Of a DNA stretch of 64,000 nt, positions 11,953 through 63,968 are shown piece after piece. Source of the DNA: Candidatus Zixiibacteriota bacterium (GTDB taxonomy: Bacteria; Zixibacteria; MSB-5A5; GN15; FEB-12); assembly GCA_029860345.1 (NCBI GenBank), contig JAOUBJ010000001.1:195089-259088 (forward strand), given 5' to 3'. The notes beneath the pieces are model-generated. The model was given only the letters and a program-made list of their open reading frames with translations. It made no database searches and was not told the DNA's origin. A program made the translations under genes and the position numbers. The first letter of the stretch is position 1. Every line of letters starts with the position of its first letter.

Positions 11953-11980
11953 ACCAGAACCCCACGGACGGGAGATACAA

Positions 11981-29410: not shown

Positions 29411-30046
29411 ATGAACATACTTGAAGAATTGTCCCAGTCGTTACAAAGAGGTGTGGACAAAGATGTCGTAGCGCACACCCAGAAGGCTATCGACAGCGGC
29501 CTGGCCGTTAAGCAGATTCTTGACGACGGCTTGATCGCCGGTATGTCGATCGTTGGTGAACGATTCAAAAAACACGAACTGTTTCTACCCCATGTGCTAT
29601 TGGCCGCCAAGGCCATGTACGCCGGACTGGACCTCCTGAAGCCGCTGATGCTGAAGGAAGGCATTCCCACGCTGGGAAAAGTCGTGATCGGCACTGTGCA
29701 TGGCGACCTGCATGACATCGGCAAGAACCTCGTCGGTATCATGCTCAAAGGGGCCGGCTTCGAAATAATCGATTTGGGCAAAGATGTGCCCGCGGAGAAC
29801 TTCGTCGAGGCCGCCATCGCCGAGAACGCTCAGGTGATCGGCTTGTCGGCGCTGTTGACCACCACCATGCCGACCATGAAGCAAGTAGTCGACCTGGCCA
29901 CCGAACAAAATGTGCGCGACAAGTTCAAAATCGTTATCGGCGGCGCCCCTTTGTCCGATGAATATGCGCAGGAGATCGGCGCCGATGCCTACTGTTTTGA
30001 TGCCGTCAGCGCCGTCGACCGCGTCAAGCAGTTTGTCGAGAACTGA
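29411..30046 (+). CDS. Cobalamin-binding corrinoid protein (MtbC/MttC/MtgC-like)
   Basis: 211 aa. B12-binding DxHxxG motif (GTVHGDLHDIGKNLV), SALLTTTM and GGAP motifs. RBS AGGGAGAG. Confidence 0.9.
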   Translation: MNILEELSQSLQRGVDKDVVAHTQKAIDSGLAVKQILDDGLIAGMSIVGERFKKHELFLPHVLLAAKAMYAGLDLLKPLMLKEGIPTLGKVVIGTVHGDLHDIGKNLVGIMLKGAGFEIIDLGKDVPAENFVEAAIAENAQVIGLSALLTTTMPTMKQVVDLATEQNVRDKFKIVIGGAPLSDEYAQEIGADAYCFDAVSAVDRVKQFVEN

Positions 30047-30048
30047 AC

Positions 30049-30945
30049 GTGTGCCCACCACTTCTCGAACAGATCAACTCAGGCAGTCTCTTTGTCGGCG
30101 ACGGCGCTATGGGGACGATGCTGTTTGCGCACGGTTTGCAAACGGGTGACTGCCCCGAGAAGTGGAACCTGGATCATCCGAAGACGCTTGAAGAAATCGC
30201 GCGGCTTTATCATCAGGCCGGAGCCGATATCGTCAGCACCAATACGTTCGGGGGATCGGCGCTCAAACTAAAACAGTACGGTCTGGGTGATCGCACCGAA
30301 GAGATCAACGCAGCCGCCGTGTGTGCCGTGCGAAATGCTATCGGTGACGAAGCATACCTCTCGGTTTCATGCGGACCGTGCGGACAATTGATCGAACCGC
30401 TCGGCGATGTCTCTGAGGACGCTGTGTTCGACAGCTTCCTCAGACAATTGCGCGGCGCAACTCAGACGCCGGTCGATTTGATCTGCGTCGAGACCATGAC
30501 TGACCTATCCGAAACTAAACTGGCTGCAAAAGCAGCCCAAACCGCCGCACCGGGAGTACCGGTTGCCGTTACCATGACTTTTGATGAAACGCCCAACGGT
30601 TTTTACACAATGATGGGCGTGAGTATCGTGCAAGCGGCACAGGAACTATCCGACGCCGGGGTGGACATCATAGGCTCCAACTGTGGCAACGGCATCGAGA
30701 ACATGATCAAGATTGCGCACGAGTTCAAAGCCTGCTCATCTCTGCCGATAATGATTCAGTCCAACGCCGGGCTACCGGTGCTCAATGGCGACCGGCTCAC
30801 CTATCCCGAGACACCTGAGTTCATGGCCGATCAGTGCCGCGAACTTGTCGAACTGGGCGTGAGCATCATCGGTGGTTGTTGCGGCACTACGCCCGAGCAT
30901 ATCCGGGCGATACGTGCGATGGTCGACGGACGCGGCGTGGACTAA
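30049..30945 (+). CDS. Homocysteine S-methyltransferase-domain protein (MetH N-terminal-module-like)
   Basis: 298 aa. GTG start 2 nt after the corrinoid gene. FVGDGAMGTMLFAHGL at the N-terminus and Zn-ligand motifs SNCGNG and GGCCGTTPEHI. Confidence 0.8.
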   Translation: MCPPLLEQINSGSLFVGDGAMGTMLFAHGLQTGDCPEKWNLDHPKTLEEIARLYHQAGADIVSTNTFGGSALKLKQYGLGDRTEEINAAAVCAVRNAIGDEAYLSVSCGPCGQLIEPLGDVSEDAVFDSFLRQLRGATQTPVDLICVETMTDLSETKLAAKAAQTAAPGVPVAVTMTFDETPNGFYTMMGVSIVQAAQELSDAGVDIIGSNCGNGIENMIKIAHEFKACSSLPIMIQSNAGLPVLNGDRLTYPETPEFMADQCRELVELGVSIIGGCCGTTPEHIRAIRAMVDGRGVD

Positions 30946-38839: not shown

Positions 38840-39382
38840 ATGAATCTCAATGACCTCTATAGTGCAGCCCGCAACGGCGACCGGCGCGCCGAGGAAAAGC
38901 TATTTGATGTTCTGACTGCAAGATTCAGGCTGTTTTCGCGCCAGAGAATATGGGACAGCGACGTTTCCGAAGAAGTCGTCCAGGAGAGCCTGTTGACGAT
39001 TTATAAGGAGTACAAGACGATTACCTTTACCTCAAGCTTCGCCGCCTGGGCATACAAAGTACTGAACAATCGGATCCTCGCCCAGATCAAGAAAGGCCAA
39101 AGGCAAGCAAGTCGTTTGCAGCCGTTGCCCGAGGGTGATACAACTGTCGCCCCCGCCTCTGAAGACTTTGACCCGGCCTTGAAACGACGGCTTCTGGATT
39201 GTCTGAAGAAGATTCGTTCCACCAACTTGCGCTACGCCCGGATTCTCAATTTACAGTACCAGGGATTCGATACTGAAGATGTATGCAGGCGATTGGCCGT
39301 GACTCGCAGCAACTTGTATTCGCTGCTATCACGGGCGCGTACGGTTTTGGAGCTATGTCTTGAGGAAGGGGGCGTGCTGTGA
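38840..39382 (+). CDS. ECF-type RNA polymerase sigma factor (sigma-70 family, group 4)
   Basis: Start moved to ATG 38840 (MNLNDLYSAARNGDRRAEEKLF). Region 2 (VVQESLLTIYKEY) and region 4 (ARILNLQYQGFDTEDVCRRLAVTRSNLYSLLSRAR) are recognisable. Confidence 0.85.
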   Translation: MNLNDLYSAARNGDRRAEEKLFDVLTARFRLFSRQRIWDSDVSEEVVQESLLTIYKEYKTITFTSSFAAWAYKVLNNRILAQIKKGQRQASRLQPLPEGDTTVAPASEDFDPALKRRLLDCLKKIRSTNLRYARILNLQYQGFDTEDVCRRLAVTRSNLYSLLSRARTVLELCLEEGGVL

Positions 39383-41682
39383 CCAATGGCTGCAACGACC
39401 AACGGTTTGAGACTCTCTTGCACGCCTACGAACTGGGGTTCCTAAGCGAAGATGAACGGGCGGAGTTGGAGATGCACATGCTCGACTGTTCCAGCTGCTT
39501 TGAGAAGGCACAGAGACTCGCACCGACCATGCAACTGATAAAGAGCGATCCCGAGGTGCGCGAAGCTGTCGACTCACTGGATTCAGACGAAAGCACGGTG
39601 CCGAGCGATACGATCGGTATTCCCGAGATGAGAGCTCGCCGTAGTTTGTGGCGCAAGCTCATGCCGACCTCGATTGCGGCTGCAGCCGTGCTCGCACTGC
39701 TTGTGTTCAAGCCCTGGAAAGTCCAGATCAGCACTGACGAAGCGGTGGCTCAGGAGAATCGGCTGGCCGTGATGTATTTCGAGAACCTGGTGGATGAGGC
39801 AGATTCAAGTCATCTGGGCGAGATCGCGACCAATCTCTTGATCACCGATCTGTCGGAATCACGGTTCATCCAGGTGGTATCAAGCCAACACCTGCACGAC
39901 CTGCTCAAACTAATCGGCAATGAAGACGTGAAGATAGTCGACAAGGATATCGCTACCCAGATCGCCCGCAAGGCGAGGGCCAAATGGATTCTGACCGGGA
40001 AGATTCTTCAGTCCTCTCCCGGTTTTGTTGTAACGGCTCAGATTGTGGATGTCTCCAGCGGAAACGCCGTTGCATCCCAGCGAGTGACCGGCGCTAAGGA
40101 GGATGACATTTTTGCGGTCGTCGACAAACTGACAACAGAAGTTAAAAATGATCTCTCCCTGCCGGCCGATGCCATGGGCGAGATGGACCCCTCGGTGGCC
40201 GATGTCACGACACACTCGGCCGAAGCTTACCGGCACTACCTGGACGGCCTGGAACTCCGTCGCAAATTCTATAGTCCCGAGGCGGCGGCAAGTTTTCAAA
40301 AAGCGCTTGAGTACGACTCCACCTTCGCCATGGCCTGGTATCATCTGGCCAAGCTTATCGACCGAAATCTGGTCGACCGGGCCGTCCAGTACGCCGACAA
40401 GGTCGGACGCAAAGAGCAATACTACATACGCAGCCTCAAGGCGTTGATCGACCAAGACACAGAGCAAGCCATGGCCCTGCTGCAAGAATTGGTCCGACAT
40501 TTCCCCGATGAAAAAACAGCCTTGCTGGACCTTGGCCGCCTTTACAATCAAATAGGAGACAACTCAGAAGCGATTGAGGTTTTCCATCGGGCCGTTGAGA
40601 TCGATCCTACGTACAAAGAAGCCTTCAATCTACTGGCCTACACCTATCAAGGGTATGGTAAGCTCGACAGCGCCTTGATGGCCATCAACCGATACATCGA
40701 TCTGGCCCCGGATGAACCTAACCCCTACGACTCACGTGGAGACATTTACCGGGCTGAGAAGATGTTCGATGAAGCGATTGAGTCATACCAACAAGCTCTG
40801 CGCATAGCGCCGGATTTCAATGCCACCCGATACAAACTGGGCCCGCTATTGATGATTCGCGGTGATTTCGATCTGGCCGACAGTTGCTTCCAGTGGATGG
40901 CCGATTCACCCCGCAAAGTCACCCGATCCGGTGCGCGGGTGTATCTGGCCCTGCCCCACATCGGTCGTGGACATCTCAACCAGGCTATCGAGATTCTGGA
41001 CGATGGGATCGCCGCCGACCGCCTCGAACAGAGCGGCGGCTGGAACAGTGTTCTCAAGTACTACCTCAAAGCGCTGTGCTATCTTGAACAGGGACGCAAC
41101 AGCGACGCCATCGATGCGGTGGATTCCTGTTTCAGCGTACACGACCGGGACTCGCCGCTGGACATGCAGTGTTTTCGTGGATTGTACACTTACACGCTGG
41201 CCGAAACCGGCCAGGTTGCGCGCAGTGCCGAATCGACGCTGGTCTTCGAGACCTTCCTTGACACTAACGGGATCGTGTTGGAACCGTACTATTTCGCACG
41301 CGGCGCGCTGGCTCTGATAACCGGTGACAAACGCACGACCGTGGCCGACCTGCAAAAATCGGCCGACTGGGTGGAATGGAAAAACGACTTCTTCCCGGCT
41401 TACTTCCTGGCCCGCGCTCTTTTGGAGGATGGGCAAACCGAAGAAGCTGCAGAACAGTTTGAAAACCTGCTGGACAACGGCACTATATGGCAAGCCTTTC
41501 TGGAGATATGGAATCTGAGGTCCAGACTTTATCTGGCCGCAGCTTACGAGAAACTGGGTCGGTATGACGACGCTCGCACGCAATGCGAGTATGTACTCGA
41601 ACGCTGGTCCGACGCCGATCCGGACCTGGCCATTGTTGAAGATGCCCGCGAGCGCCTGGCTCGTTTGGCACAAAGACCCTGA
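39379..41682 (+). CDS. Anti-sigma factor (zf-HC2) fused to a TM helix and a large periplasmic TPR domain
   Basis: 767 aa. GTG start overlaps the sigma stop (GTGA). N-terminal HxxxCxxC-type motif (EMHMLDCSSCFEK), one TM helix (~aa 95-115), then many TPR units. Confidence 0.75.
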   Translation: MTNGCNDQRFETLLHAYELGFLSEDERAELEMHMLDCSSCFEKAQRLAPTMQLIKSDPEVREAVDSLDSDESTVPSDTIGIPEMRARRSLWRKLMPTSIAAAAVLALLVFKPWKVQISTDEAVAQENRLAVMYFENLVDEADSSHLGEIATNLLITDLSESRFIQVVSSQHLHDLLKLIGNEDVKIVDKDIATQIARKARAKWILTGKILQSSPGFVVTAQIVDVSSGNAVASQRVTGAKEDDIFAVVDKLTTEVKNDLSLPADAMGEMDPSVADVTTHSAEAYRHYLDGLELRRKFYSPEAAASFQKALEYDSTFAMAWYHLAKLIDRNLVDRAVQYADKVGRKEQYYIRSLKALIDQDTEQAMALLQELVRHFPDEKTALLDLGRLYNQIGDNSEAIEVFHRAVEIDPTYKEAFNLLAYTYQGYGKLDSALMAINRYIDLAPDEPNPYDSRGDIYRAEKMFDEAIESYQQALRIAPDFNATRYKLGPLLMIRGDFDLADSCFQWMADSPRKVTRSGARVYLALPHIGRGHLNQAIEILDDGIAADRLEQSGGWNSVLKYYLKALCYLEQGRNSDAIDAVDSCFSVHDRDSPLDMQCFRGLYTYTLAETGQVARSAESTLVFETFLDTNGIVLEPYYFARGALALITGDKRTTVADLQKSADWVEWKNDFFPAYFLARALLEDGQTEEAAEQFENLLDNGTIWQAFLEIWNLRSRLYLAAAYEKLGRYDDARTQCEYVLERWSDADPDLAIVEDARERLARLAQRP

Positions 41683-41868
41683 CCCGCCAGGAGTAAAGTG
41701 TCAATCCCAACTTCCCGCACCTTCAAGGTCTCAGTGATTCCAAATAGAAAATGCGTTAACTGTTACCGTAGGAAACCGCTTGAAAACCTATGAACGAAAG
41801 CTTACCTTCACGCCAGACTAAAGACGACCCGAAAACGAAGACAAAACAACCACCGCTCCCCGTCGCGA

Positions 41869-43137
41869 GTGCGTCGAGTGGTGGAGATGGAGACTGCACT
41901 GATGCACTTTGACCTACTCAGCCCCAAAGATACCAAAGCCATCGATGCGCTGATAGAATCGTATGGCGGCGCACGAGCCATCGGAGACCAAATATCAACC
42001 AAGCGCGGATTCGAGACACGCAAGATAACCGCCGCCGACAAAGGGTACGGCGAAATGATCGAAAAAGCCGAGCAGTACGCCAAGTCGTTTCCCAAAGTGG
42101 GCGATTTCGTGGCCGCCGAAAAGCTTGAGGTCACCAAACCATCGGTCTGCACCACACAGGTGTCCGGATTCCAGGGCGCTTATGTCACACTGGACTGCAT
42201 GCGACGAATTGCAGAGAACAAGAACGTGCTGTTCCCTTCGGAAATGATCTCGGTGGTAGCCTTGACCGAACAATACGTCTATGGGGGTGACCTGCTGGCC
42301 ACCCTGACCATGGCCGAGAACATCCTCAAGGCGAGTAAGTTCTGCTCGACCAATCTTATCGGTATCCCGCTACCCGAAGAACGGTTCGTGCGCCTGGAAA
42401 AAGTGACCGGTGAGAAATTTGACCGACGCGGTCTCGGTGACGGTATGTGCGCCCTGATTCTGAAAAACATGGGGACCGGCTTCGGCAATCTGGGCGGTGT
42501 CGAAGTGGCCGACAACAATCATCTCGTCTATCTCGACGGTGTCATCCGGGCCGGTATGGAGACCGGCAACAACTTTTTCCTCAACCCAAGCTGGTCGACA
42601 ATCGTGGCCGCCTGCTGCTGGGGTCGGGTCATTCCGGAAGTTAGCTTCAAGGTCTCCATGCTGCTCTCCACCCAGAACGCAATCCAGTTCCGCATGCTGC
42701 TGAACATAATCAAAGCCTACCTGCGCGATGACGGCAGTACACCGATCTACGAGATCAACATCGGCAACGGCGCCAGTCCCGAAACATTCATCCAATGTTC
42801 CGAAGAACTCAAAGCCTCAGGACTTGAGAACATCCTGTTAACCGCCCACCTTCGTATCAACCCCGACCTCGGCATGGAAGACTTCAACTGGACCGACAAC
42901 GCCCACAAAGTTCTCGAGGCCGGATGCGACATGACGATTAAGTACGAAAGCGACGGCACGGCGCGACCTTATGATACGATGGAAGCCTACTTCCTTTCCG
43001 ATGACGAACGTACCGCCAAAGCCGACCTGATCGGCGATGTAATCTACCACAAGTGCATCCGCTGCGATCTCGATGCAAAAGAAATCATGCGCCGCGGTCA
43101 CAAAACGCGATTCGCCGGAATTGCCTGCAAAAGCTGA
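41869..43137 (+). CDS. Conserved-looking hypothetical protein, family not recognised
   Basis: 422 aa in the track (GTG 41869). ATG 41902 has the better RBS spacing (GGAGATGGAG). Cytoplasmic composition with no TM or signal sequence. First gene of a tight 4-gene operon. Confidence 0.6.
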   Translation: MRRVVEMETALMHFDLLSPKDTKAIDALIESYGGARAIGDQISTKRGFETRKITAADKGYGEMIEKAEQYAKSFPKVGDFVAAEKLEVTKPSVCTTQVSGFQGAYVTLDCMRRIAENKNVLFPSEMISVVALTEQYVYGGDLLATLTMAENILKASKFCSTNLIGIPLPEERFVRLEKVTGEKFDRRGLGDGMCALILKNMGTGFGNLGGVEVADNNHLVYLDGVIRAGMETGNNFFLNPSWSTIVAACCWGRVIPEVSFKVSMLLSTQNAIQFRMLLNIIKAYLRDDGSTPIYEINIGNGASPETFIQCSEELKASGLENILLTAHLRINPDLGMEDFNWTDNAHKVLEAGCDMTIKYESDGTARPYDTMEAYFLSDDERTAKADLIGDVIYHKCIRCDLDAKEIMRRGHKTRFAGIACKS

Positions 43138-51135: not shown

Positions 51136-51459
51136 ATGATCTATGTGCTTTCAAAACCGCGCCTGCTTCAGACTATCGCGGCCCTGGCAGTAGTCCTTTT
51201 TGTGGGGGCTCTTCTTTTGCTAACCGTTGCCGGGGCTCAACCGAATGACTGTAAAGACTGTGACGATGGGTGTGACGGGCACGGCGAGTCGGTCTGCAGT
51301 TGCATAGGTTGCGCTCCTGTTATGGCGGCCTGTCGGGTCTTACCGCCGGAACTCGGTCCTCCGCAAACCCACTGTTGCTTAGCCCCAATCTCTCCTCTTG
51401 AATTGCTCGAATCCGATTGGTTTGATCGTCTGGATCGGCCACCACAAACCCTTTCTTAG
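51136..51459 (+). CDS. Small Cys-rich membrane-anchored protein (hypothetical)
   Basis: 107 aa. One TM helix, then DCKDCDDGCDGHGESVCSCIGCAPVMAAC and HCC. Coding status rests on the ORF and its context with the downstream metal-binding gene only. Confidence 0.4.
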   Translation: MIYVLSKPRLLQTIAALAVVLFVGALLLLTVAGAQPNDCKDCDDGCDGHGESVCSCIGCAPVMAACRVLPPELGPPQTHCCLAPISPLELLESDWFDRLDRPPQTLS

Positions 51460-51603
51460 TTTTTACTTGCAAACGATCAGTGTTCTTGGCCAAATTCCTT
51501 GGGTCCATGTTTGGCGAAGGACGCGGTTCGGTCACTTGGTGTTGTGAACCAAATCGATCGCATAATTATGCAAATGAGAATTAACAGCAAAGGTACAGAA
51601 AAT

Positions 51604-51927
51604 ATGATCAATCGAATAACCCTTCTAACTCTTGTTCTTGCCTTGTCCACACTCGCAATCGCCTGCGGCGGTGGTAAGAACTTCAGCCTCACCGAGGAAC
51701 CGGGAACGGAGATTCGTATCTACGAAGTCTTCGGCATGGACTGTCCCGGCTGTCATGTCGGTGTTGAAAAACTGGTCAATCGGGTTGATGGTGTCGTGAC
51801 CTCCGTGGCCAACTGGACGAAGAAACAAATTGCCATCAAGGTGCGCTCGTCGGATAACGTTTCCGACGAGGCTATCTTCGACGCCATTAAAGAAGCCAAC
51901 TTTACCCCCGGAAAACGTCTCGACTGA
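51604..51927 (+). CDS. Heavy-metal-associated (HMA) domain lipoprotein
   Basis: Start at ATG 51604 (MINRITLLTLVLALSTLAIAC lipobox). GMDCPGCHVGVEK is the GMxCxxC HMA motif. Confidence 0.8.
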   Translation: MINRITLLTLVLALSTLAIACGGGKNFSLTEEPGTEIRIYEVFGMDCPGCHVGVEKLVNRVDGVVTSVANWTKKQIAIKVRSSDNVSDEAIFDAIKEANFTPGKRLD

Positions 51928-53112: not shown

Positions 53113-53219
53113 GGTGAGTGAAACGCAAGATATCCATTCATGAGCACCCCACTTTATCCTTCCCTTGCCCGCCGTGGCATCGTATTATCTGAAAAAGCGA
53201 ATCCATACCCGGAGGTCCG

Positions 53220-54257
53220 ATGTTTAAGACACTAGTGTCATGCATGGTCACGATGATTCTGGCGGTAGTAGTAATCACACCCACATTTGCCCAACGCCCG
53301 GAACCGAAAAAAGAAGAAATCCGCGGGCATACCATGTATACCCTCATGGAACCGGGTGGCATACCGGCCATATTCGAGCCGGAATTTGTATCCATCGAAG
53401 TAGCCGACTCGTTTTATTACGATGATGAACCGTTGATCGCGGTGTCATCCGGCAGCGTCGCGCGAGGCTACAGCACCTGGCATCTGGACCATCACGAAAT
53501 CGTCAATGACATGCTTGAAGGAACGGCTATCGCCGTCACCTGGTGACCGCTTTGTTTTACAGGCATAGTTTATGCCTCTGAGATCGACGGACAGGTGTTC
53601 ACGTTTCAAGCTTCGGGATCGCTCTGGCAGGACGCCCTGGTTATGCACGACCGTGAGACCGAATCGCTCTGGCCGCAGCCGTGGGGCGAGTGTTTCAAGG
53701 GAGCTTCCGAGGGCAAGAAACTAACCGAGTACCCGGCCATTCATACAACTTACTCAGAGTTCAAAAAACTCTACCCGCACGGCCAACTATTGAAGAAGCC
53801 CGAAAGAGGCGAAGCTGGTTCACCATACTCAAGGTACTTCGCCGACCCGGAGAAGCTGGGTATGTTCGGCAGGCTCAACAATTACGAACAGATGCCCGGT
53901 AAAGACAAAGTGTTTGGAATCCGCAGCGGCGACCAGCAAGTGGCGGTGTCTCTGGCTCTCTTGAAAAGGAGGGGTTACACCTTGGTTACCGGTGTGGGCG
54001 ATCCGATGATAGTCACTTACGATTCGACATCCGAAACCGCCTCAGCTCTTGCATTTGAGGGCGACCAGAGAGCATCGGTCAAAGGTCTTAGAGTTTATAG
54101 CGACAGTATCATCGGACCCGGCGGCGTGACTGTTTGGCACCCTCGGACCGGCAAAGCCATCCGGGGTGAAGGCTCGGACCTGCCGGTTGTACCGACTATG
54201 AGCGCATACTGGTTTGCCTGGTTGAGTTTCTTCCCGGAGACTGAGCTGGTCGATTAG
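53220..54257 (+). CDS. DUF3179-family secreted protein with one in-frame TGA (53544-53546) at the first Cys of the conserved CPLC motif; candidate selenoprotein (otherwise a pseudogene)
   Basis: Track ORFs 53220..53546 and 53595..54257 are in the same frame, with no other stop between them. Joined product: ...GGIPAIFEPEFV...DDEPLIAV...ARGYSTWHLDHHEIVND...AIAVTW-[TGA]-PLCFTGIVY...FQASGSLWQDALVMHDRETESLWPQ...YWFAWLSFFPETELV. This matches my recollection of DUF3179 (VTYCPLCGT, SGKL..S.LVMYDR.T.SLWSQ, FWFAW..F.P.T.V). GGAGG RBS and a signal peptide are present. Confidence 0.7.
53554..53584 (+). promoter_or_regulatory. Candidate bacterial SECIS stem-loop downstream of the in-frame TGA
   Basis: The upper stem aggcata/tatgcct (53561-53567 / 53571-53577) encloses the loop GTT (53568-53570). 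A lower stem, guuuua with ugagau (53554-53559 / 53579-53584), forms using G-U pairs, separated from the upper stem by a C.C mismatch. The hairpin starts 8 nt after the UGA and its loop starts 21 nt after it. The G-U in the loop recalls the fdhF SECIS. Confidence 0.5.
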
Positions 54258-54344
54258 TGCCGGAACTTGCCAGTTGAGAACAACCCGATTTATCGGTGGT
54301 TTGCCTGGTTGAGTTTCTACCCGGAGACTGAGCTGGTGAATTAG
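54211..54344 (+). repeat. Direct duplication of the DUF3179 gene's last 47 nt, including the stop
   Basis: 54211-54257 ggtttgcctggttgagtttcttcccggagactgagctggtcgattag versus 54298-54344 ggtttgcctggttgagtttctacccggagactgagctggtgaattag. There are 3 mismatches and a 40-nt spacer. Confidence 0.85.
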
Positions 54345-54505
54345 TTGCTAGTCTCTTGTGGTGGCTGATTCTTCGGACTCGGCCACTACCCACGCGATCT
54401 GAAGATCACGCGGGCACAAGATACTCAATTAACAAAATAGGACATTTCTATCTTGCTAAAAACCGGACATTTCTGTTTTGCCTTGACATTGGGGCTATTT
54501 GGGGA

Positions 54506-54672: not shown

Positions 54673-57600
54673 ATGTCTCACCGATTCTCCCTTACATTGC
54701 TCACTCTGTTGATTCTGCTCACCCTCACCGGTTGGACCTGGGCAGGCAACACGTCTAAAGATGGGCTGAACCCGATTCCAATCAGCAACCCGAACGCTCA
54801 ACTCTATAATGACATCGAAGACGCTCGTCCGGCACCGGCTACTTTTAAGAAGCCGATGACGGAAGGTCCTTTCGAGGTCCAGATGTCCGGCGTTGCTTCA
54901 AGTCCTCCGTCAGCCTACTTCTGTGAAGACTTAGGCTACTACGACGACACGGTTACATCCGTCTGGGTGTGGAGTATTCCGGATGCCTGGGGCGACGATC
55001 TCATGAATATGCGCTTTACCGTCGAAGAAGGTATTGAGTGTACTCTGAAGGTCGGTTGGGTCCTGATGTATGGTGGTTTTGCCACCGGTACACCGGATAT
55101 GCGGGTGTACCTATGGGACGACGACGGCTTCGGTTTCCCCGGCAACAAGCTGGACTCGACCGATGTACCTAATGCCGCCATGGGCGGATCCTTCTGGTGG
55201 GCCGAAGCCAACTGGTCGGCTGCCGATTGGGTCTTCACCAATGGTGAAGAATACCATATCGGCTGGACGACCCTGGGCGGCGACGGCGACACGTTGTGGT
55301 GCGTGTCCGATAAAGGTACCGGTCCCCACTCGTACACTGGTGAACAACGGGCCAGTGAAAACTGGAACGGCTTTTGGGGTACGATGTACGACGACTGGGG
55401 CGAGGATGTATGTTTCCTCATGACATCTGAGCGTTGTTGCTATGAGTTACCTTTTACCGATTGCTATTCTCAAAGCTGGGATGAGGGCACTGCCTACTGG
55501 TGGAAAGCTCCCCACGACGCTTATGGTATTATCGACTATGCACAGCGGTTTACTGTCACTGGGGTTGAAACCCTTCAGTCTGTAGATATCGATGTCTACG
55601 ACTTTACGGGTTCCTCCTCGCAGAACGCCGGTATCGTCGGTAATGACGACTTGATTATCAGTGTATGGGATGACAATGCCGGCTATCCCGGCTCGGTTAT
55701 TGCGCAAGAAACCGTCCCGGCGGGGACCTATGTGTACCATCCGGCCTATACTAACGTTGATTTCTCATCACACAATCTGGTGCTGGGTTCCGGGGACTTC
55801 TATGTCTCCTTCAACTCGACCGGTGATCTCGGTGCCGGCGACTTTGAGGGTACCTTGTCGGATGATGAAACGGATGGCCACGGTCGCTCATACTGTATCT
55901 ACGGTGGCGATTGGTGGACCATCGGTGATCTCTTCGGAATCGATGTCGACATGAAGTACACAGCAAATTTGTGTGATGACCCATTCTTCGAGTGTGAATT
56001 GGCTTTCTACGACACGGGTCCGGTCTATTACTGGACTTTGCCGGATGCTTACGGCGACGTCGCCAATGCCCAGTTGATCAAGTCTGTTGGGAAGGCGTGC
56101 GAAGTCAGAGAAGTCTCCTGGGCTCTTCATGATTTCAATCCGGGCGTGGCCTATGCTCACAACTCAGTGGTTTCAGTCCACGAGGACGTGGGTGGTCTGC
56201 CCGGACCGGCCCTGGCCTCGGTCACCCTAACTCCGGCTGATTATGTGATGTACCCCGGTTACACTTCGGTCGACTTCGCACCCTTGGCTGTCAGCGTTCA
56301 GGGACTATACTGGATTTCAATCGAATCCTTGTCACCGACCGAAGCCGAAGGTATTGCTACCCTGACCGATTTTGGCGGCGGCGGCTGGAACTATGGTGCC
56401 GCCGAACTCTGGAATGGTTTCTGGGGTCTGCTCTGTCTGGATTGGAACGGCGTGCCTTGTGATATTGCTTTCGTCGCCAAATCCTATCATTGCTGTCAAC
56501 CACACTGTTGCTGCCCCTGCCAAGGAGATCCGGGTTGGGCTACGCATCAGCACGATCAGCAGCGTACCGGCGCATCGTTCAATTCCTTTGGCGACGCCCA
56601 GTGTGACTTGACAACGCAATGGTGCTACACCCACCCGACCAACCAGATATTTTATACCGGTCCGGCTATTTCGGGCGACAAGGTTGTTTGCGCCTGGGAT
56701 AATGAAGTCAAGGTGTTTAACCTGACGACGGGCTTTGAAGCTTATACCCTGTCCGGTTTTCCGCTGGGCAACCAGATCAGATGTACGCCGCACATACAGG
56801 ATAGCGTGATGTATCTGACCGGCGGAGATCAGCAATCTGTTAGCGCTTGGGACTTCGCTACCGGCGCTATGATCTGGAGCCGTGATATTACCAGTGTCGG
56901 TGTCGGCGGCCTGTTTGGGCAGACCCGTTACGGTTCCTTTATAATTCTGGAACAGGGTAGCGGCGACGTATTGTACTTCGGTACGGATGACGGTGCTATC
57001 GTTGCTGTCGATGCAGCCACCGGCGCTCTGTACTCAGGCTGGACGGTGAACCCGGTGTATATCGCTCCCGGTGCTCCACTGAAATCCGGCTCGACCGACG
57101 GCTTACAGCTTTTCTACAACACCTATCCGGGTGGTGTGGAAGGTGATGTTTACGCCATCGACGCCGCTACCGGCGCTATCAACTGGCAGTTGTCAACATC
57201 CGGCGGCCTACAGGCTGCTGCGGTCTACCCGGAAGGGCCGCAGGGTGGTGAAGGTTTTGCCGCACCTAACGCGGTCAGTCTGGAAAATGGTCTTCTGTTT
57301 GTCAATTCAAGTATTGCCGCTCCGTATCATCCCGGGGATGGTGTCTTCTACGCCATCAACACTTCTGACGGTTCAGTAGCCTACGCGGTGCCTTCGCACC
57401 GTCCCAACACTGCCGGTACCGCCGCCGGTCCGGTAATCGACCGTGCACGTGTCTATCAGGCCGGTCAGTCCTGGTGGGCGACTCCCCCGTCAGGTGGTTT
57501 GATTCTTGCTTTCAACAAGACCACCGGCTCCTATGTGTGGGCGACCTCCAGCCCCGAGTATAACACATACCGCGGTGATATGGCTCTCACCTGCGGAAAA

Positions 57601-59646
57601 GACGGTGAGGCGCCACTGTTGTTCGCAATCGGTCACCACGGCTTTATCAGCACATTGAACTCTGCCACGGGTGAGGAAATCTACCGTCGTCGTATTACCT
57701 ATGGTGGATTCCCCAACTCAATAGCTCTGAGCGCAGCGATAGGACCCGGCGTCGTGGCTATTAGTGACCTTTACGGTACACTTTCTGTTCTGGCCAAAGG
57801 TGAAGATCGTCCGCGCCTGGAAATTCAGTCGTACCAGCCTTCTCCATCGGTGGAGTTTGGTCCGGCCACTTCATTGCACGTGCCGATCCCGAACCGGTTG
57901 GTCAACACCGGTTGTGCCGACCTGACCTTCGGTCAGCTTGAGACCAACACCTCTGCGAACCATCCGTGGATACCGCCGGACTTCGCTCCGGCCAACGTGC
58001 GTCCCGATGTAATGGATCGCGCAGCCGGTATCACTGATCGTTTGACCGAAGGCTTCGAGACCAAAGCTATCCCGGCGCGACCGGAAGCTGAGGTCGATGA
58101 CTATTTCGTCATTCGTGACCGTGGTGAACAGTCGTTGAACCTGGGTGCCGATGCAGGAGTTCCGTTCCTGCAGTATGCGACTCACACCGAAGCGGTCGTT
58201 TGGCCACACGCCGGTGACATTCTTGCCGCCGGTGACACGGCTGACCTCGTTATCGATGTCAACCAGTCGCTGATCGTTCGCGGACCACAGGATTTCTATA
58301 TGGTGATCCCCAGCGACGATCCTGATTTCTATCTGCACGACGTCTGTGGCAACACGCTCTACGGTCCGCCCGAAATCCACGTAACTATCGTCGGTGGCTG
58401 TCTTGTTGATACCACCACCATGCAGTTCGGCATGGGTGGCGGTAACACTCAACTCGTGACCAACAATGGCCGTATCGGTACCGGCGACTGGGACCCGCAC
58501 GCAATGGATATAGACGGCGACGACGCCTCGATCTACCAGGGTTCGTTCATCTATGCCACCGGCCTATATGAGGTGGCCCTAAGCACCCAGGATTGGTATT
58601 CCGGCGGCGGCGAGGACGAGGCGTATCGGTCGATGCAGCCGGACCCGAACTGGTGTGACGACCAGTGCAAGGCGCACATCGATGAGGGTGTCGTCCTGAG
58701 TTGTCTCGGTGGCTACTCCTCAGACGGTATAACTTACACCCCAATCATGGGTAACCGAGTTTGTGTAACCTATCTTGACTCCGTTCAGGACTTCGGAACT
58801 TCTTGGGATTGGTCAAACTACGATGCACCGTTCAGTAATGATCTGACCATGGGTCTCATGGTGAACTCACGCACGGTGGGTGCTTATGACTTTGAGCCGC
58901 TGAAGGACCTCACCGTTGACATCATGGAATTCACCGAGCGCAACGGCGACTCGGTCACAGGCTGGGCTTTCGGCACCACCATGGACTACGACGTCGGAAG
59001 TGATGATATCGCTTCACGTTCTGCGGAAGGATCGGCGGCCTGGGTCTCCAACGGTGGAGTGGGCGATGTCCAATGGGGTATGATCAAGTTCCCGTTCGGA
59101 TGCGGAAGTAACGAGGCGGCAGGCGGCAACAATACAAACGTAGACTACGTCCCGATGATCAATACGGTGTCCGGACACGGCGACGGCATGTGGTTTAACG
59201 TTCCCACCCTCTATCTCGATTCCGCCTGGGACTACCTCAACCGGCCGGCCGGTGAGTATTCTCAAGCGCCGTTCACCAGCGATAGGGAAGCTCACTTCAC
59301 CATTGCCAAACACGATTTTGCCGGTGGCGATACTTATGAGATGGCTGTGGCTCAGTTCGGTCTGCACGGCACTTCGGGCGATGCAACTGAAATCAATGCC
59401 CTGGCCAAGCTGGCCAACAAGTGGCTCGGTTTTGGTCGTGGCGATGTCAACAATGACGGCAATGTTGATCTTGGCGACGTAGTTTGTCTGGCCAGGTACG
59501 TGACTGGTAACGGCCCCGGACCGATTCCGTTCATGCACCTGGGTGATGTCGATTGTGACGGTGACGTTGATATGGACGATGTGGTGTATCTTGCCGAATT
59601 CCTGTATGACAATGGACCTTGCCCGTGTGGTGACTGGTGCTTCTAG
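54673..59646 (+). CDS. Giant secreted protein: three N-terminal ~180-aa beta-sandwich-like repeats, a PQQ/BamB-like beta-propeller, and a C-terminal dockerin-like module
   Basis: 1657 aa. Signal peptide MSHRFSLTLLTLLILLTLTGWTWA. Repeated W.W..PDAWGD/PHDAYG/PDAYGD modules. Propeller repeats (SAWDFATGAMIWS, VAVDAATGALYSGW, YAIDAATGAINWQL, YAINTSDGSVAYA). C-terminus GDVNNDGNVDLGDVVCLARYV...GDVDCDGDVDMDDVVYLAEFLY. Confidence 0.75.
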   Translation: MSHRFSLTLLTLLILLTLTGWTWAGNTSKDGLNPIPISNPNAQLYNDIEDARPAPATFKKPMTEGPFEVQMSGVASSPPSAYFCEDLGYYDDTVTSVWVWSIPDAWGDDLMNMRFTVEEGIECTLKVGWVLMYGGFATGTPDMRVYLWDDDGFGFPGNKLDSTDVPNAAMGGSFWWAEANWSAADWVFTNGEEYHIGWTTLGGDGDTLWCVSDKGTGPHSYTGEQRASENWNGFWGTMYDDWGEDVCFLMTSERCCYELPFTDCYSQSWDEGTAYWWKAPHDAYGIIDYAQRFTVTGVETLQSVDIDVYDFTGSSSQNAGIVGNDDLIISVWDDNAGYPGSVIAQETVPAGTYVYHPAYTNVDFSSHNLVLGSGDFYVSFNSTGDLGAGDFEGTLSDDETDGHGRSYCIYGGDWWTIGDLFGIDVDMKYTANLCDDPFFECELAFYDTGPVYYWTLPDAYGDVANAQLIKSVGKACEVREVSWALHDFNPGVAYAHNSVVSVHEDVGGLPGPALASVTLTPADYVMYPGYTSVDFAPLAVSVQGLYWISIESLSPTEAEGIATLTDFGGGGWNYGAAELWNGFWGLLCLDWNGVPCDIAFVAKSYHCCQPHCCCPCQGDPGWATHQHDQQRTGASFNSFGDAQCDLTTQWCYTHPTNQIFYTGPAISGDKVVCAWDNEVKVFNLTTGFEAYTLSGFPLGNQIRCTPHIQDSVMYLTGGDQQSVSAWDFATGAMIWSRDITSVGVGGLFGQTRYGSFIILEQGSGDVLYFGTDDGAIVAVDAATGALYSGWTVNPVYIAPGAPLKSGSTDGLQLFYNTYPGGVEGDVYAIDAATGAINWQLSTSGGLQAAAVYPEGPQGGEGFAAPNAVSLENGLLFVNSSIAAPYHPGDGVFYAINTSDGSVAYAVPSHRPNTAGTAAGPVIDRARVYQAGQSWWATPPSGGLILAFNKTTGSYVWATSSPEYNTYRGDMALTCGKDGEAPLLFAIGHHGFISTLNSATGEEIYRRRITYGGFPNSIALSAAIGPGVVAISDLYGTLSVLAKGEDRPRLEIQSYQPSPSVEFGPATSLHVPIPNRLVNTGCADLTFGQLETNTSANHPWIPPDFAPANVRPDVMDRAAGITDRLTEGFETKAIPARPEAEVDDYFVIRDRGEQSLNLGADAGVPFLQYATHTEAVVWPHAGDILAAGDTADLVIDVNQSLIVRGPQDFYMVIPSDDPDFYLHDVCGNTLYGPPEIHVTIVGGCLVDTTTMQFGMGGGNTQLVTNNGRIGTGDWDPHAMDIDGDDASIYQGSFIYATGLYEVALSTQDWYSGGGEDEAYRSMQPDPNWCDDQCKAHIDEGVVLSCLGGYSSDGITYTPIMGNRVCVTYLDSVQDFGTSWDWSNYDAPFSNDLTMGLMVNSRTVGAYDFEPLKDLTVDIMEFTERNGDSVTGWAFGTTMDYDVGSDDIASRSAEGSAAWVSNGGVGDVQWGMIKFPFGCGSNEAAGGNNTNVDYVPMINTVSGHGDGMWFNVPTLYLDSAWDYLNRPAGEYSQAPFTSDREAHFTIAKHDFAGGDTYEMAVAQFGLHGTSGDATEINALAKLANKWLGFGRGDVNNDGNVDLGDVVCLARYVTGNGPGPIPFMHLGDVDCDGDVDMDDVVYLAEFLYDNGPCPCGDWCF

Positions 59647-60070
59647 GCCACAAGTGGCCCTTCTGGCGCTTCGCGCGGTCATAAATGACTCTTTCGCGCT
59701 ACGCGCGCCGTTCTGTGCGTGGTGTACGTCCTCATGCGCCACGGTGATAAATCACTTTCTCGCGCTTCGCGTGCCCAGAATCTAACTCAGTGCATCTCTT
59801 CAACCTCACCCTTAGCGGAGTCGAAGGGTGCACGGTCAAGCCGTGTTCTTGTGGCTATGCCACGCGTTGACCCAAAAGCGCGCGAAGCGCAAAAACCAGG
59901 CTTGCCTGTGGTTCGACTCCGCTCACCATGAGGTTGCGCGCGAAGCGCGAGAGACCCATTTATGGGTGTCATTCCCGCACCCCTTTGTCATTCCCGCGAA
60001 GGCGGGAATCTATCCGTATTGCGGTTCGCTCAAAGCTGAAGATGGACCCCCGCCTTCGCGGGGGTGACGA
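59646..60070. repeat. Hairpin-module cluster between the convergent giant genes
   Basis: ggccac-aa-gtggcc at 59646-59659. Three gcgct(t/a)cgcg units at 59659-59776. M4 at 59807-59830 and reverse at 59909-59927. M1 reverse at 59880-59906. M5 at 59987-60010 with a half-copy at 59968-59978. cccccgc-cttc-gcggggg at ~60046-60063. Confidence 0.8.
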
Positions 60071-60127
60071 CCCAGGGACCGTAGGTCGGCCACCCACATG
60101 ATCCCACCGCCCCTTCTTACGCCTCAC

Positions 60128-60183
60128 AAAAAAGACGCCCAGCGGTGGAGGGGAACTCAGGGGAGTGGTCACCACTGGGCGAT
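60128..60183 (-). terminator. Candidate Rho-independent terminator of the 1232-aa gene
   Basis: On the minus strand, cccagtggtg...caccgctggg forms a 10-bp stem with one G-U pair and a ~22-nt loop, followed by cgtcTTTTTT (plus-strand A-run 60128-60133). It lies ~90 nt after the stop at 60270. The loop is unusually large. Confidence 0.4.
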
Positions 60184-60269
60184 ACAGTCGGCTGCACGAT
60201 TGCAGCCGGATGTTGGTCTTACGATATCGTAGAGCCTGTTCCGTTTTTGTTCTATTACCTCACACTATC

Positions 60270-63200
60270 TTACTTCAGCAACACCATTTTGCGGGTGGTC
60301 TCAAACTCCGGTGTGGACAATCGATAGAAGTAAACACCGCTTGACAAGTCTCTGGCATCCCAGGCAACCGTGTATGTCCCAACTTCGTGCCGGCCGTCGG
60401 CCAGTATTGCGACTTTCTGTCCGACAACGTTGTAAACATCGAGCGAGATATTGGCCGCTTTCGGTAAGCTGAACGTGATCGCTGTCACCGGATTAAACGG
60501 GTTAGGATAGTTTTGTCCCAAACTGTAGCCATCAGGTAAAAGTCCGCCGACACTTTCCACCGAAGCCTGCATCGAACCATACTGTTTGTCGGCCACGACG
60601 GCCTCGACCACCCGGACTCTACCGATCAATCTGACTACCGCTGTTTCTCCTGATTCGATGACGTTGTCGCCGTCGAGATCAAGGATTCCCACCCTGACAT
60701 TCTCGCCACGCACACCGTGGACCAGATCGAGCCCGTCATCAACCAGCTTCTGGGGTGCAACCGTTCCATCGGCGCGCAGATGCAATTGCAGTCCGCGAAG
60801 GTCGACCGGTGAATTCAAAATAATATCGGTCGCACCGTTTTCATACACCGCTCTCAAGACGATTTCCGGGTTGGGTTTCGCCACGGCCGCCCCATCGGAG
60901 GTAACACAACCGCAATTCAAGTCGGGGAAGGCTGGTGGATCCAGCGGGTTGAACATCCAGTCGATCAGGAACACCAGATCGGAGATGTCCGGTCCGATAC
61001 AGTCGCCGTTGACATCCAAAGCATCGATCACGCACGGCGGCGGACCATACGAGAACATATAGTCGACCACGCCGACGAGATCGGATATACTGATCACCGG
61101 GTCAGCGTCGAAATTACCCGGTACGTATCCGACGATTTCCACCCGGTCGCGCCAGTAGTCGAAGCCTGGGTGTACGGTCGTGTATGTCGTGTCGGCGAAG
61201 GCGAGTCTCTTGGCGACATCGAGCATCAGGGTGGTGTCCCACCTGATGTAAGCGGCATCGCTACAACCCGGCACAACATTAAAGTGAATGTTGAACACGG
61301 TCGACACACCCGGCGGAATGGTGGCATCGAACGAATTGGCCAGGGCCACAAAAACGTAACCCAAACTGTCATTGACCTCGCTGAAGTTCCAATCCCACTC
61401 GGAGGTCATCAAACCCTCGGTGGACAGCGAACAGATCGATACTCCCTCCGGGATTGAAATCGGAATTGTCGCTCCCTTGATCGGCTGAGTCAATTTGGTT
61501 TGAACCGGCTGTACCGCACAGGCCCAATCGCACGGCGTTACGGTTATACTCGGGACAATCAGAGAATCGACCGGGTCGGTACCCGGGCCGGTAACTCGCA
61601 ACAACACCGGGACCCCTACCGGCGGGAAAGAGACGCCGTCGGTATCGGGCCATATAGTAATCGTATCGTGGTAGTAGCCCGGCGGCAGCGAGTCGGTCTG
61701 CACCGTGACAGGCGACATATAGGGTGTTAAAAATGGTGGTTGATCGTTGAAATCCAGATGCAGCCACGGCGCATGACTCCATATGTGAAAGGGTACGGCT
61801 TCACCGTGCACCTCATAAATGTACAGCCCGGTGGTGATTGCCCCACCCTGCGGCAACACGAACGAGAATTGTTGGGGGTCGGTGGCCACCACGGCACTGC
61901 CGGAATCGGGCAGGATGTGCAGAACCACCGGGACGATCACGTCGTCAAAGCCGTACATGTCATCCAGCGGATAGTAGATCAGCACGCTGTCACCGTAGGT
62001 GCCCGGCGCCAGACCGGCGATGCTGATATGGAAGCCGACATGCGATGGTGTCACACCAAAAGCGGTGCCGGAGTCCAGCGTCAGCCAGGGGCTGTTGTTG
62101 AAAACAGTGGCAGCAAAACTGAGATTGGCGCTATCCAGATCGTACACAAGGAACTCTTCACCGATAACGTGGTTGCCCTGGTTCAGCGTGAACTCAAAGT
62201 GATCCGGCGCCGCCAAGACAGTGAACGGCTGGCCTTCGGTCACGATCAGCGTAAACGGCACATGTGCCACATCGACCGGCGGTTCAACATTCTCAGAGTA
62301 AGCGGTGATGGTGAGAACATCATGGTACACCCCCGGCGCCATGCCCTCGGTGGAGACACCGAACGGAAGGGTCATCGGTGTTGTCGGCACCGTGAACCAG
62401 ACCGGCAGTGTCAGCCAGGGCGCTTCATGGGTAAAACTCAGCGCCAGTGTGGCGCCGTGAAGTTCCTCGATGTGCAAGTAGTCCTCAAAACTGTGCCCCG
62501 ATGGCACCGCGTAATCGAATTGCTGAGGATCGACCACCAACTGAAATCCCAAAGAGTCGACGACCAGCCAAACCGGTATGGCCACCGGCGGGAAAGGTAT
62601 GGAATCATGGGGTGCGTATAGCACGATCGTGTCCACATACTGTCCCGGCCCGAGGTCGTTGGCATAGATGCCGAAGTAGACCGAGTCGGGCGTCCAATAC
62701 ATGTTGTCTGGCTGGGTATCCTCAATGTCCAGCCAGGGACTTCCGTGCATCACTTCGGCTGCGAACGGAATCGACAAACCGTGAGCTTCCCACACGGCTA
62801 TCCCCTGGTGCGGTATCACGTCTCCCGGTTGGGCCGCGAATTCGAAATGGTTGGGATATACTATCAGGTTGGGACCGTCATGGATCGATACGAACACCGG
62901 GACCCGTACCGTGTCGAAGTCGACGTTCGGGTCAACGGGCATTATAACGATAGTGTCCACATAGTTGCCGGGCGGTAGATTGTTGGCACCAACGGCGACG
63001 GTGAGAGTCATAGGTGTTGAGTAGGGCGGCATCGGGAACGGGTCCACCACCAACCAGGGATGCGTGTTCGAAAAATGAAAAGGCACGTTGTGTCCGTTGA
63101 CTTCGAACACATGAAGCGAGTCCGATGTTCCTGTACCACCGGACAGACTGAAATTGAATTCCGAGGGAATCGTGTGAACGACAAATTCGCTGCCACCGCC

Positions 63201-63968
63201 GGTTACGTGCAGCACCACCGGTACATCCAGTGTCTGGAACGGCCCCGTGGAGTCATTCAGGAAAGCGTGAAGGACTATCATGTCCTCGTAGATGCCCGGT
63301 GTCAGACCCTCGGTGTGAACGTACACCGGCAGGCTGAACGGTGTGGCAACCGGCGCGAAGTACACCGGCAGGGTCAACCATTGACTGGAGTTGGACCAGC
63401 CGAAGTAGATAGTATCGCCGTGCGCCTCAAAAACGAACAACGAGTCTTCCATGGTTGCACCGGGCGGCCCCGCGAAAGCCAACTGCGGAGGCGCTACCAT
63501 TAAGAGCGGTTGATTGGGCGTGCAACTCAGGTGAAGCCGGACCACAACTTGCTCGGGCGGGATATTCGGATCACCGGCAGTGACGGTAACAATCGATTCC
63601 AGTAGCAGGGTGTCGCCGGGCGGCAGGGAGTCCGGCAGGTCGCCCAAGTGCTCTTTAACTATCCAAACCAGTACCGAGTCTGAGTCATAACCGGACGGCG
63701 GTATAACCCCCAGCCAAGCCGCATCCGGATCAACCTCCCAGTATAACCCGGTGTCGCCGCAAACAGCCATGATGTATATGGACTTGTATTCGATACTCTC
63801 TTGCAGAAGCCAGCCGTTGCAAAGATCACCGTAGAAATCCAACCCATCCGGCATAACTTCCAGGCATGAATTGTTCTGCCCCCAGGCAGACTGGATACCG
63901 AACATTAAGAGCGCAATACAGACAAACGACCGCAACATCAACTTATAAAGTCCACACGAGTAGCGCAT
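60270..63968 (-). CDS. Giant secreted protein: ~7 tandem ~105-aa Ig-like repeats, a beta-sandwich region, a dockerin-like module, and a T9SS (Por) C-terminal sorting domain
   Basis: 1232 aa with a signal peptide. Repeat signature F.F....G......L.V.E.HG....F......PWL.L......TP....V.V....L.PG.Y.D.I.I. Dockerin-like DISDLVGVVDYMF and DISDLVFLIDWMF. C-terminus GQNYPNPFNPVTAITFSLP...VYNVVGQKVA...SGVYFYRL is the classic T9SS CTD pattern. Confidence 0.8.
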   Translation of the reverse strand: MRYSCGLYKLMLRSFVCIALLMFGIQSAWGQNNSCLEVMPDGLDFYGDLCNGWLLQESIEYKSIYIMAVCGDTGLYWEVDPDAAWLGVIPPSGYDSDSVLVWIVKEHLGDLPDSLPPGDTLLLESIVTVTAGDPNIPPEQVVVRLHLSCTPNQPLLMVAPPQLAFAGPPGATMEDSLFVFEAHGDTIYFGWSNSSQWLTLPVYFAPVATPFSLPVYVHTEGLTPGIYEDMIVLHAFLNDSTGPFQTLDVPVVLHVTGGGSEFVVHTIPSEFNFSLSGGTGTSDSLHVFEVNGHNVPFHFSNTHPWLVVDPFPMPPYSTPMTLTVAVGANNLPPGNYVDTIVIMPVDPNVDFDTVRVPVFVSIHDGPNLIVYPNHFEFAAQPGDVIPHQGIAVWEAHGLSIPFAAEVMHGSPWLDIEDTQPDNMYWTPDSVYFGIYANDLGPGQYVDTIVLYAPHDSIPFPPVAIPVWLVVDSLGFQLVVDPQQFDYAVPSGHSFEDYLHIEELHGATLALSFTHEAPWLTLPVWFTVPTTPMTLPFGVSTEGMAPGVYHDVLTITAYSENVEPPVDVAHVPFTLIVTEGQPFTVLAAPDHFEFTLNQGNHVIGEEFLVYDLDSANLSFAATVFNNSPWLTLDSGTAFGVTPSHVGFHISIAGLAPGTYGDSVLIYYPLDDMYGFDDVIVPVVLHILPDSGSAVVATDPQQFSFVLPQGGAITTGLYIYEVHGEAVPFHIWSHAPWLHLDFNDQPPFLTPYMSPVTVQTDSLPPGYYHDTITIWPDTDGVSFPPVGVPVLLRVTGPGTDPVDSLIVPSITVTPCDWACAVQPVQTKLTQPIKGATIPISIPEGVSICSLSTEGLMTSEWDWNFSEVNDSLGYVFVALANSFDATIPPGVSTVFNIHFNVVPGCSDAAYIRWDTTLMLDVAKRLAFADTTYTTVHPGFDYWRDRVEIVGYVPGNFDADPVISISDLVGVVDYMFSYGPPPCVIDALDVNGDCIGPDISDLVFLIDWMFNPLDPPAFPDLNCGCVTSDGAAVAKPNPEIVLRAVYENGATDIILNSPVDLRGLQLHLRADGTVAPQKLVDDGLDLVHGVRGENVRVGILDLDGDNVIESGETAVVRLIGRVRVVEAVVADKQYGSMQASVESVGGLLPDGYSLGQNYPNPFNPVTAITFSLPKAANISLDVYNVVGQKVAILADGRHEVGTYTVAWDARDLSSGVYFYRLSTPEFETTRKMVLLK

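Follow-up and report, generated by a model that had tools for sequence, protein, structure and literature searches.

Described Selenoproteins Closest to the Locus

In Escherichia coli fdhF, the bacterial prototype of the SECIS element, the upper stem–loop that binds SelB lies shortly past the UGA. Among protein families, DUF3179 (PF11376; motif UxxC/T) is already cataloged as a selenoprotein family: It stands in the family table of Zhang et al. 2022 (PMC9312934) and is entered again in a 2026 AEM review (PMC13188914), and both credit Zhang & Gladyshev 2007 (NAR 35:4952), a study of the Olavius algarvensis symbiont metagenome. That study reported new TGA-containing families with Cys homologs and SECIS-like hairpins bearing a conserved loop G (PMC1976440); the name DUF3179 does not occur in its text, and the matching family is perhaps OS_HP1 or OS_HP2. 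The reviews give MBW1804167.1 and MDJ0986319.1 as example DUF3179 selenoproteins. These entries correct a preliminary description of the present locus, which had not counted DUF3179 among the listed selenoprotein families. NCBI labels such products "DUF3179 domain-containing (seleno)protein"; P0003, one bearer of that name, has Tyr (TAC) at the site in question.

Here we analyze a gene at positions 53220–54257 on the forward strand of a 64-kb stretch of DNA, the window. The locus carries every computationally testable feature of the known DUF3179 selenoprotein family—the Pfam domain, Sec as the first residue of UxxC, and a downstream SECIS-like hairpin with a loop G—and differs from described members in nothing essential; the window copy comes from another organism and is split in public gene calls. 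It is a new, mis-annotated DUF3179 selenoprotein, neither a new family nor a new recoding mechanism.

Two further comparisons place the locus. Like fdhF-type elements, its hairpin lies in coding sequence directly 3′ of the UGA, with a conserved short G+C-rich upper stem, a conserved loop G/U, and fixed spacing (14 nt to the stem, 20–21 nt to the loop); unlike them, it has no sequence similarity to fdhF, its loop spans 3–5 nt, and no conserved bulged U was identified. With thioredoxin-fold UxxC/CxxU selenoproteins (DsbA-, TlpA-, and Prx-like), the gene product shares U-x-x-C, a predicted extracytoplasmic location, and one homolog fused to a TlpA/AhpC-type domain. It differs from these oxidoreductases in that the window protein has no Trx-type Pfam domain, many DUF3179 members do without the second Cys, and the 50 best PDB matches listed for a model of P0003 include no thioredoxin-fold chain.

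One DUF3179 Domain Spans an In-Frame TGA

Translation of 53220–54257 yields 345 codons in one frame, followed by a TAG stop and preceded by a Shine–Dalgarno GGAGG (53211–53215) 4 nt before the ATG. The sole internal stop is TGA 53544–53546 at codon 109, in the context ...IAVTW*PLCFTGIVYA.... The preliminary description had joined two ORFs, 53220–53546 and 53595–54257, into a full-length DUF3179-type protein of ~345 aa, and this reconstruction holds: The ORFs share a frame broken only by the TGA, and with Cys placed at that codon the joined protein matches PF11376 in one stretch, from residue 46 to 341 and from profile position 2 to 292 of 292 (E 9e-69; 232.5 bits, against a gathering score of 27 bits). 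Because the match crosses the TGA uninterrupted, the two ORFs are halves of one domain. Aligning the joined protein with full-length homologs, a check of the kind that the preliminary description had proposed, places the TGA opposite a column that is at least 90% Cys. A search of NCBIfam gave no matching model for the joined protein.

Public gene calls (JGI, ENA, and Logan) break the gene into 108-aa and 204-aa products, with ATG 53643 used as the start of the C-terminal piece. We read 53220–54257 instead as a single functional gene encoding an exported DUF3179-family selenoprotein, in which the TGA almost certainly specifies Sec.

The TGA Codon Is Shared by Distant Relatives and Flanked by Sequence Under Purifying Selection

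GTDB species genomes and JGI metagenomes supplied 160 related loci, and the codon opposite residue 109 was mapped with tblastn. It is TGA in 94 of 163 cases, TGC in 38, TGT in 29 (67 Cys codons in total), and TAC in 2. The TGA thus stands where the preliminary description had placed it, opposite the first Cys of C-P-L-C, and Cys- and TGA-containing versions both exist, the latter with a conserved downstream hairpin. The tblastn alignments cover residues 1–345, and those of TGA forms pass through the TGA at 34–74% identity; the nearest relatives, at 71–73%, are Zixibacteria MAGs.

By record titles, TGA forms come from MAGs labeled with more than 10 phyla. The labels include Zixibacteria, Ignavibacteria, Neomarinimicrobiota, GN15, Thermodesulfobacteriota, Deferribacteres, Calditrichota, Fibrobacteraceae, Krumholzibacteriia, and Eisenbacteria, together with Acidobacteriota (Thermoanaerobaculia, Terriglobia, and Blastocatellia) and Chloroflexi (Dehalococcoidia and Anaerolineales). 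Cys forms are chiefly from CPR bacteria, with some Terriglobia and one archaeon. Two TGA paralogs occur together on some contigs or MAGs (L085 with L095; L015 with L017), which makes independent nonsense mutations implausible.

Both halves of the gene are under purifying selection. Measured pairwise against five relatives, dN/dS is 0.04–0.18 upstream and 0.06–0.19 downstream of the TGA, synonymous sites are near saturation (pS 0.54–0.74), and the gene is free of frameshifts and additional stops. The sequence itself recurs in independent data: Contigs from different samples, ENA ERZ27296364 and Logan SRR7132589, match the window at each of the 1,038 bases, and a 637-kb JGI contig carries the product too, the DNA being counted identical in the ENA, Logan, and JGI assemblies. 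TGA is also the commonest ordinary stop in the window, ending 15 of 29 Pfam-supported ORFs; the genetic code is therefore standard, as the preliminary description had held on the ground that TGA terminates other genes here.

A Conserved, Covarying Stem–Loop Follows the UGA

The hairpin drawn in the preliminary description folds as it was claimed to in every element. A lower stem with G-U pairs (53554–53559/53579–53584) is followed by a C.C mismatch (53560/53578), an upper stem AGGCAUA/UAUGCCU (53561–53567/53571–53577), and a GUU loop (53568–53570) that is separated from the UGA by 21 nt. A 61-nt fold of the hairpin alone is unremarkable (z −1.13); the 47 nt from the UGA fold at −15.1 kcal/mol (z −3.47), and 1 of 200 shuffles folds as well. 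What gives the hairpin its significance is the comparative data.

For these we aligned 75 nt around the TGA from 87 distinct TGA forms, in frame and without gaps. Run unaided on this alignment, RNAalifold returned one helix (columns 24–29/35–40), which corresponds to window positions 53561–53566/53572–53577. This 6-bp stem begins 14 nt past the UGA and closes a 5-nt loop, N-G-U-N-N, whose G and U (G53568 and U53569 in the window) are invariant; the window sequence adds an A-U pair (53567/53571), and the core as a whole spans 53561–53577. The helix is 91.5% paired, and an 8-pair version reaches 85.6%, against 20–45% in slid registers. Conservation stops at the upper stem: Family-wide, pairing falls to 55.6% of cells in the lower stem and to 64.4% in the outer stem (53547–53552/53586–53590), so that the extended hairpin at 53547–53590 is lineage-specific. 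The earlier proposal of this hairpin as a SECIS element stands for its upper part; the lower and outer stems do not share that family-wide support.

Three pairs of the stem show double-sided compensatory changes (CG46/GC29; CG73/UA10/AU3; AU62/GC23). The CG/UA/AU pair joins the third position of the Gly codon, where changes are synonymous, to the opening base of the codon that follows Tyr, which reads GCC (Ala), ACC (Thr), or UCC (Ser). Since maintaining this pair costs amino-acid changes, RNA pairing constrains the protein, and coding constraint alone is insufficient to explain the stem. Covariation over the helix is 0.366, a value reached in 0 of 500 shuffles (mean 0.185), and is at most 0.174 in slid registers. 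When the window is left out and a covariance model is built from the remaining 86 sequences, the model finds the UGA and its hairpin at 53544–53582 with 49.6 bits (rough E 2e-14), the next best score in 128 kb being 12.6 bits.

The set of five core pairs is complete in 84 of 87 TGA forms and in 1 of 60 Cys forms, a contrast that is inflated because the Cys controls are mostly distant phylogenetically (CPR, with G-I-V-F-D). The hairpin is kept, perhaps as a fossil, in a Tyr form (L003) and in a Terriglobia Cys paralog (L067), and two loci, L062 and L065, break it by an A.C mismatch. Given that the stem is partly forced by the G-I-V-Y-A codons and that the Tyr form and the Cys paralog retain it, the hairpin alone is not diagnostic. 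Rfam gave no SECIS or meaningful match, either at gathering thresholds over the whole window or at permissive E-values over 53480–53680, where the only match was a chance one to mir-306 (E 9.3). We set aside a mini-hairpin containing the UGA (53535–53547), for which the comparison of TGA with Cys forms is confounded by W/Y and TGA/TGY differences. On the comparative evidence, the downstream upper stem–loop is strongly supported as the bacterial SECIS element of this TGA.

Alternative Readings of the TGA

The preliminary description had named one competing account, a pseudogene in which a one-step TGC/TGT-to-TGA nonsense mutation killed a Cys-type DUF3179 gene. Only a single mutation would be needed, the gene callers of three public resources deliver two fragments, and Sec machinery was not found in the window. 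A dead gene would nonetheless have to be reconciled with 94 loci, from MAGs labeled with more than 10 phyla, that have TGA at this very codon, with dN/dS of 0.04–0.19 on either side at nearly saturated synonymous sites, with an otherwise intact frame, and with a hairpin upheld by compensatory changes that occur in TGA forms only. The codon tally and dN/dS in particular effectively refute this account, and we regard it as very improbable; the Sec reading, already favored over decay in the preliminary description, is the one that purifying selection on both halves supports. An artifact is less credible still: Single-base errors are known in metagenome assemblies, so that the true codon might be TGC or TGT, yet contigs from different samples agree at every base and the same codon is TGA in dozens of unrelated assemblies, which leaves an error a negligible chance. 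Nor do two separately translated genes account for the locus, one for a 108-aa protein that stops at the TGA and one for a C-terminal product from GTG 53595 or ATG 53643. Start codons are available past the TGA, and callers use the second. Against such a division, 87 distinct sequences align over the 75 nt around the TGA in frame and with no gaps, and the peptide most conserved in the family (PLCFTGIVYA...FQASGSLWQDALV) is encoded in the very interval from the TGA to the supposed restart. The Pfam domain runs through unbroken, and in Cys forms the protein is a single chain; we consider a split gene extremely unlikely.

The remaining question is whether the UGA could be read as something other than Sec, by near-cognate Cys or Trp read-through or by a lineage-specific reassignment of TGA. 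The case for this is that the Sec machinery of the genome is a matter of inference and that a hairpin might in principle aid read-through without SelB. On the other side, TGA serves as an ordinary stop in 15 of 29 genes, Cys stands opposite the site (a hallmark of Sec/Cys exchange), the hairpin has the geometry of bacterial SECIS elements with an invariant loop G, a criterion used previously (PMC1976440), and DUF3179 is a cataloged selenoprotein family. Non-Sec decoding is improbable, if less so than the other alternatives. The codon tally, dN/dS, the independent assemblies, the paired paralogs, and stop usage together rule out that the locus is a pseudogene, a split gene, or the outcome of an assembly error or a reassigned code.

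Proposed Route of Sec Insertion

Under the Sec reading, a ribosome would meet the UGA at codon 109 with an mRNA stem–loop beginning 14 nt downstream. This 6–7 bp G+C-rich stem with the invariant G-U in its apical loop would act as a bacterial SECIS element and recruit SelB·GTP·Sec-tRNA(Sec), so that selenocysteine would be inserted in place of termination and translation would run on for 236 further codons. The element is encoded within the codons for a conserved peptide, T-G-(I/V)-V-(Y/H)-(A/T/S/V), with codon choice and even the residue after Tyr covarying in a way that preserves the stem.

A Pfam sweep of the 28 large ORFs in the 64-kb window found none for SelA, SelB, or SelD, and the window contains no tRNA; this is unsurprising for a window of such size cut from a contig at least 637 kb long. 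A literature search for the Sec trait in Zixibacteria gave nothing informative. Selection on the UGA and on the SECIS element points to a Sec-decoding capacity in the genome and, with it, to insertion that would depend on SelB.

Predicted Properties of the Protein

The first 24 codons (53220–53291) encode a predicted Sec-type signal peptide, MFKTLVSCMVTMILAVVVITPTFA, with a basic n-region (MFK), a hydrophobic core, and an x-F-A motif; cleavage is likely before QRPEPKK (TFA|QRPEPKK). TGA-form orthologs likewise have a hydrophobic N-terminus followed by a conserved (S/T)FAQRPEPK junction. These features suggest that the product is exported and extracytoplasmic.

In an alignment of full-length homologs, His92, Asp97, Pro110, Asp144, Thr147, and Trp151 are invariant and the residue-109 column is at least 90% Cys. 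The window protein holds these family-invariant residues and the (V/I)-T-(W/Y)-C-P-L motif, with the UGA at 109, so that the C-P-L-C/A/T of the family becomes U-P-L-C (53544–53555). Motif tallies are UPLC 82, UWLC 2, UWLA 1, and UPLA 2 among TGA forms and CPLC 59, CPLT 1, and YPLC 1 among the others; Planctomycete homologs such as P0041 have CPLA. Because the second Cys is replaced in some members (CPLA, CPLT, UPLA, and UWLA), residue 109 is the key position and a strict dithiol mechanism is uncertain. Sec109 is most likely the redox-active or nucleophilic center of an extracytoplasmic enzyme, with Cys112 as its likely resolving partner. One homolog, P0097, has a TlpA/AhpC-type thioredoxin domain (WCPPC) fused to DUF3179, which fits an extracytoplasmic thiol-redox role.

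Searches of the PDB by sequence and by profile found no homolog. The AlphaFold (AF2) model of P0003, a protein of 50% identity, has a pLDDT of 87.6 and is beta-rich and apparently two-part; Foldseek found no PDB match at E ≤ 1e-3 among the 50 best matches listed. About 90–100 residues of the model weakly resemble Rieske ferredoxins and NirD (probability 0.85–0.95; target TM-score 0.43–0.59), a partial likeness that is a fold-level lead at most, as Foldseek E values are 0.05–0.5 (best 0.054) and the CxH...CxxH ligand motifs of those proteins are absent from the window protein.

Distribution of the Sec Form and Annotation

The comparative data suggest that the Sec form of DUF3179 is widespread among candidate phyla associated with sediment and anaerobes. 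A broader proposal, which we offer tentatively and regard as rather doubtful, is that the Sec form prevails over Cys in DUF3179 across a dozen mostly uncultured phyla and is kept by a single family-specific SECIS element coevolving with T-G-(I/V)-V-(Y/H)-x, RNA pairing dictating Ala, Thr, Ser, or Val after Tyr. Were this so, DUF3179 would be among the most widely distributed exported selenoproteins without an assigned function, systematically mis-annotated as two ORFs.

For annotation, the result corrects the window gene and bears on many orthologs that are publicly split into 108-aa and 204-aa fragments; a clean family-specific SECIS model could serve the re-annotation of DUF3179 selenoproteins in metagenomes. 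The role of a selenol in an exported DUF3179 enzyme is an old question that this locus alone does not make easier.

Gene Neighborhood and Other ORFs of the Window

The preliminary description had taken an adjacent HMA/CxxC protein as a functional hint. The neighbor at 51499–51927 does match the HMA family (Pfam E 4e-6); across 160 ortholog loci, however, no match to the HMA protein, to a Cys-rich ORF, or to SucD lies within ±3 kb of the gene, so the hint finds no support among orthologs. A MetA-type outer-membrane protein gave three weak matches near orthologs in the same 160 loci. We rejected a metal-handling operon as a candidate, the 160 loci showing no conserved neighborhood.

A crude scan of the window lists 57 same-frame ORF pairs split by TGA, and the two most striking others were examined by Pfam. 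Neither is a recoded gene: 28667–30046 comprises one gene with a methionine-synthase activation domain and a separate one for a B12-binding protein, and 39379–43137 is a TPR protein followed by a separate ORF with no Pfam match.

Downstream of the DUF3179 gene, at a distance of 38 nt, lies a conserved 49-nt copy of the gene's own 3′ end. One ortholog locus, L005, has the copy too, and it seems to coevolve with the gene in a concerted fashion; it may possibly be a functional element.

Sequence Variation around the Sec/Cys Position

The U-P-L-C motif is not uniform among the TGA forms of DUF3179: U-W-L-C, U-W-L-A, and U-P-L-A variants were found in five related loci (L094, L095, L096, L055, and L066). 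Because such variants exist, Sec forms can, as judged from these sequences, tolerate replacement of the second Cys and even of the otherwise invariant Pro. A Cys form provides a natural domain fusion. The 480-aa ENA metagenome protein P0097 joins a TlpA/AhpC-TSA-type thioredoxin domain, with the active site WCPPC, to a DUF3179 domain carrying YCPLC, and a hydrophobic segment at the N-terminus precedes both fused domains.

One related locus, L003 (the same as L016; MAG JBDRES010000040.1), has neither Sec nor Cys at the aligned codon but TAC, encoding Tyr (L003 6322–6324). Its DUF3179 homologue bears the NCBI name "(seleno)protein" despite the Tyr codon, and the SECIS-like hairpin CGGCAU-CGUGU-AUGCCG is likewise still present. 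L003 may represent a recent Sec-to-Cys-to-Tyr change, or else an inactive copy. Retained and disrupted hairpins also occur among Cys forms from Terriglobia. Chromosome OZ253536.1 encodes a Cys paralogue (L067) together with a Sec paralogue (L075), and the hairpin of the Cys paralogue still folds; in two further Terriglobia Cys forms, L062 and L065, an A.C mismatch disrupts the stem, with the peptide G-I-V-Y-A identical.

A terminator scan of the window identified a second, small hairpin, GUCAC-CUG-GUGAC (53535–53547), that spans the UGA codon itself. At least four of its five pairs form in 74 of the 87 distinct TGA forms, but TGA and Cys forms also differ by W/Y and TGA/TGY, which confounds any contrast between the two classes.

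A 49-nt Repeat at the 3′ End of the DUF3179 Gene

The final 49 nt of the DUF3179 gene, including the stop codon (54210–54258), recur 87 nt downstream (54297–54345) with 46/49 identity. The orthologue L005 (71% amino acid identity) has the duplicate in common with the window at equal spacing (L005 3991–4039 and 4078–4126; 43/49), and in L164 it is degraded (32/49) and lies at a spacing of 103, ~103 nt downstream of the gene end; among the relatives compared, no others carry it. Copies within one genome resemble each other more closely than do orthologous copies, a sequence pattern that suggests gene conversion or selection. In the window, the second copy keeps the reading frame of the TAG stop, whereas L005 has a stop in between.

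Other Genes of the Window

Directly upstream of the HMA protein lies a small ORF (51136–51459; 107 aa) whose product is hydrophobic at the N-terminus and contains a stretch rich in Cys, DCKDCDDGCDGHGESVCSCIGC. Neither Pfam nor NCBIfam gave a match, and a search near DUF3179 orthologues found no counterpart. In an apparent methyltransferase operon (27213–30945), an MttB-family methyltransferase of 485 aa is encoded together with a methionine-synthase activation-domain protein, a corrinoid protein that binds B12, and a protein of the homocysteine S-methyltransferase type. The window is also rich in very large proteins of secreted or repeat type, encoded at 8165–15430, 20930–22750, and 54673–63968: FG-GAP/ASPIC/TPR proteins, a PQQ-like beta-propeller protein of 1657 aa that carries a dockerin domain, and a protein of 1232 aa whose C-terminal sorting domain is of the Por (T9SS) type. 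This abundance fits an FCB-group or Zixibacteria-like organism.
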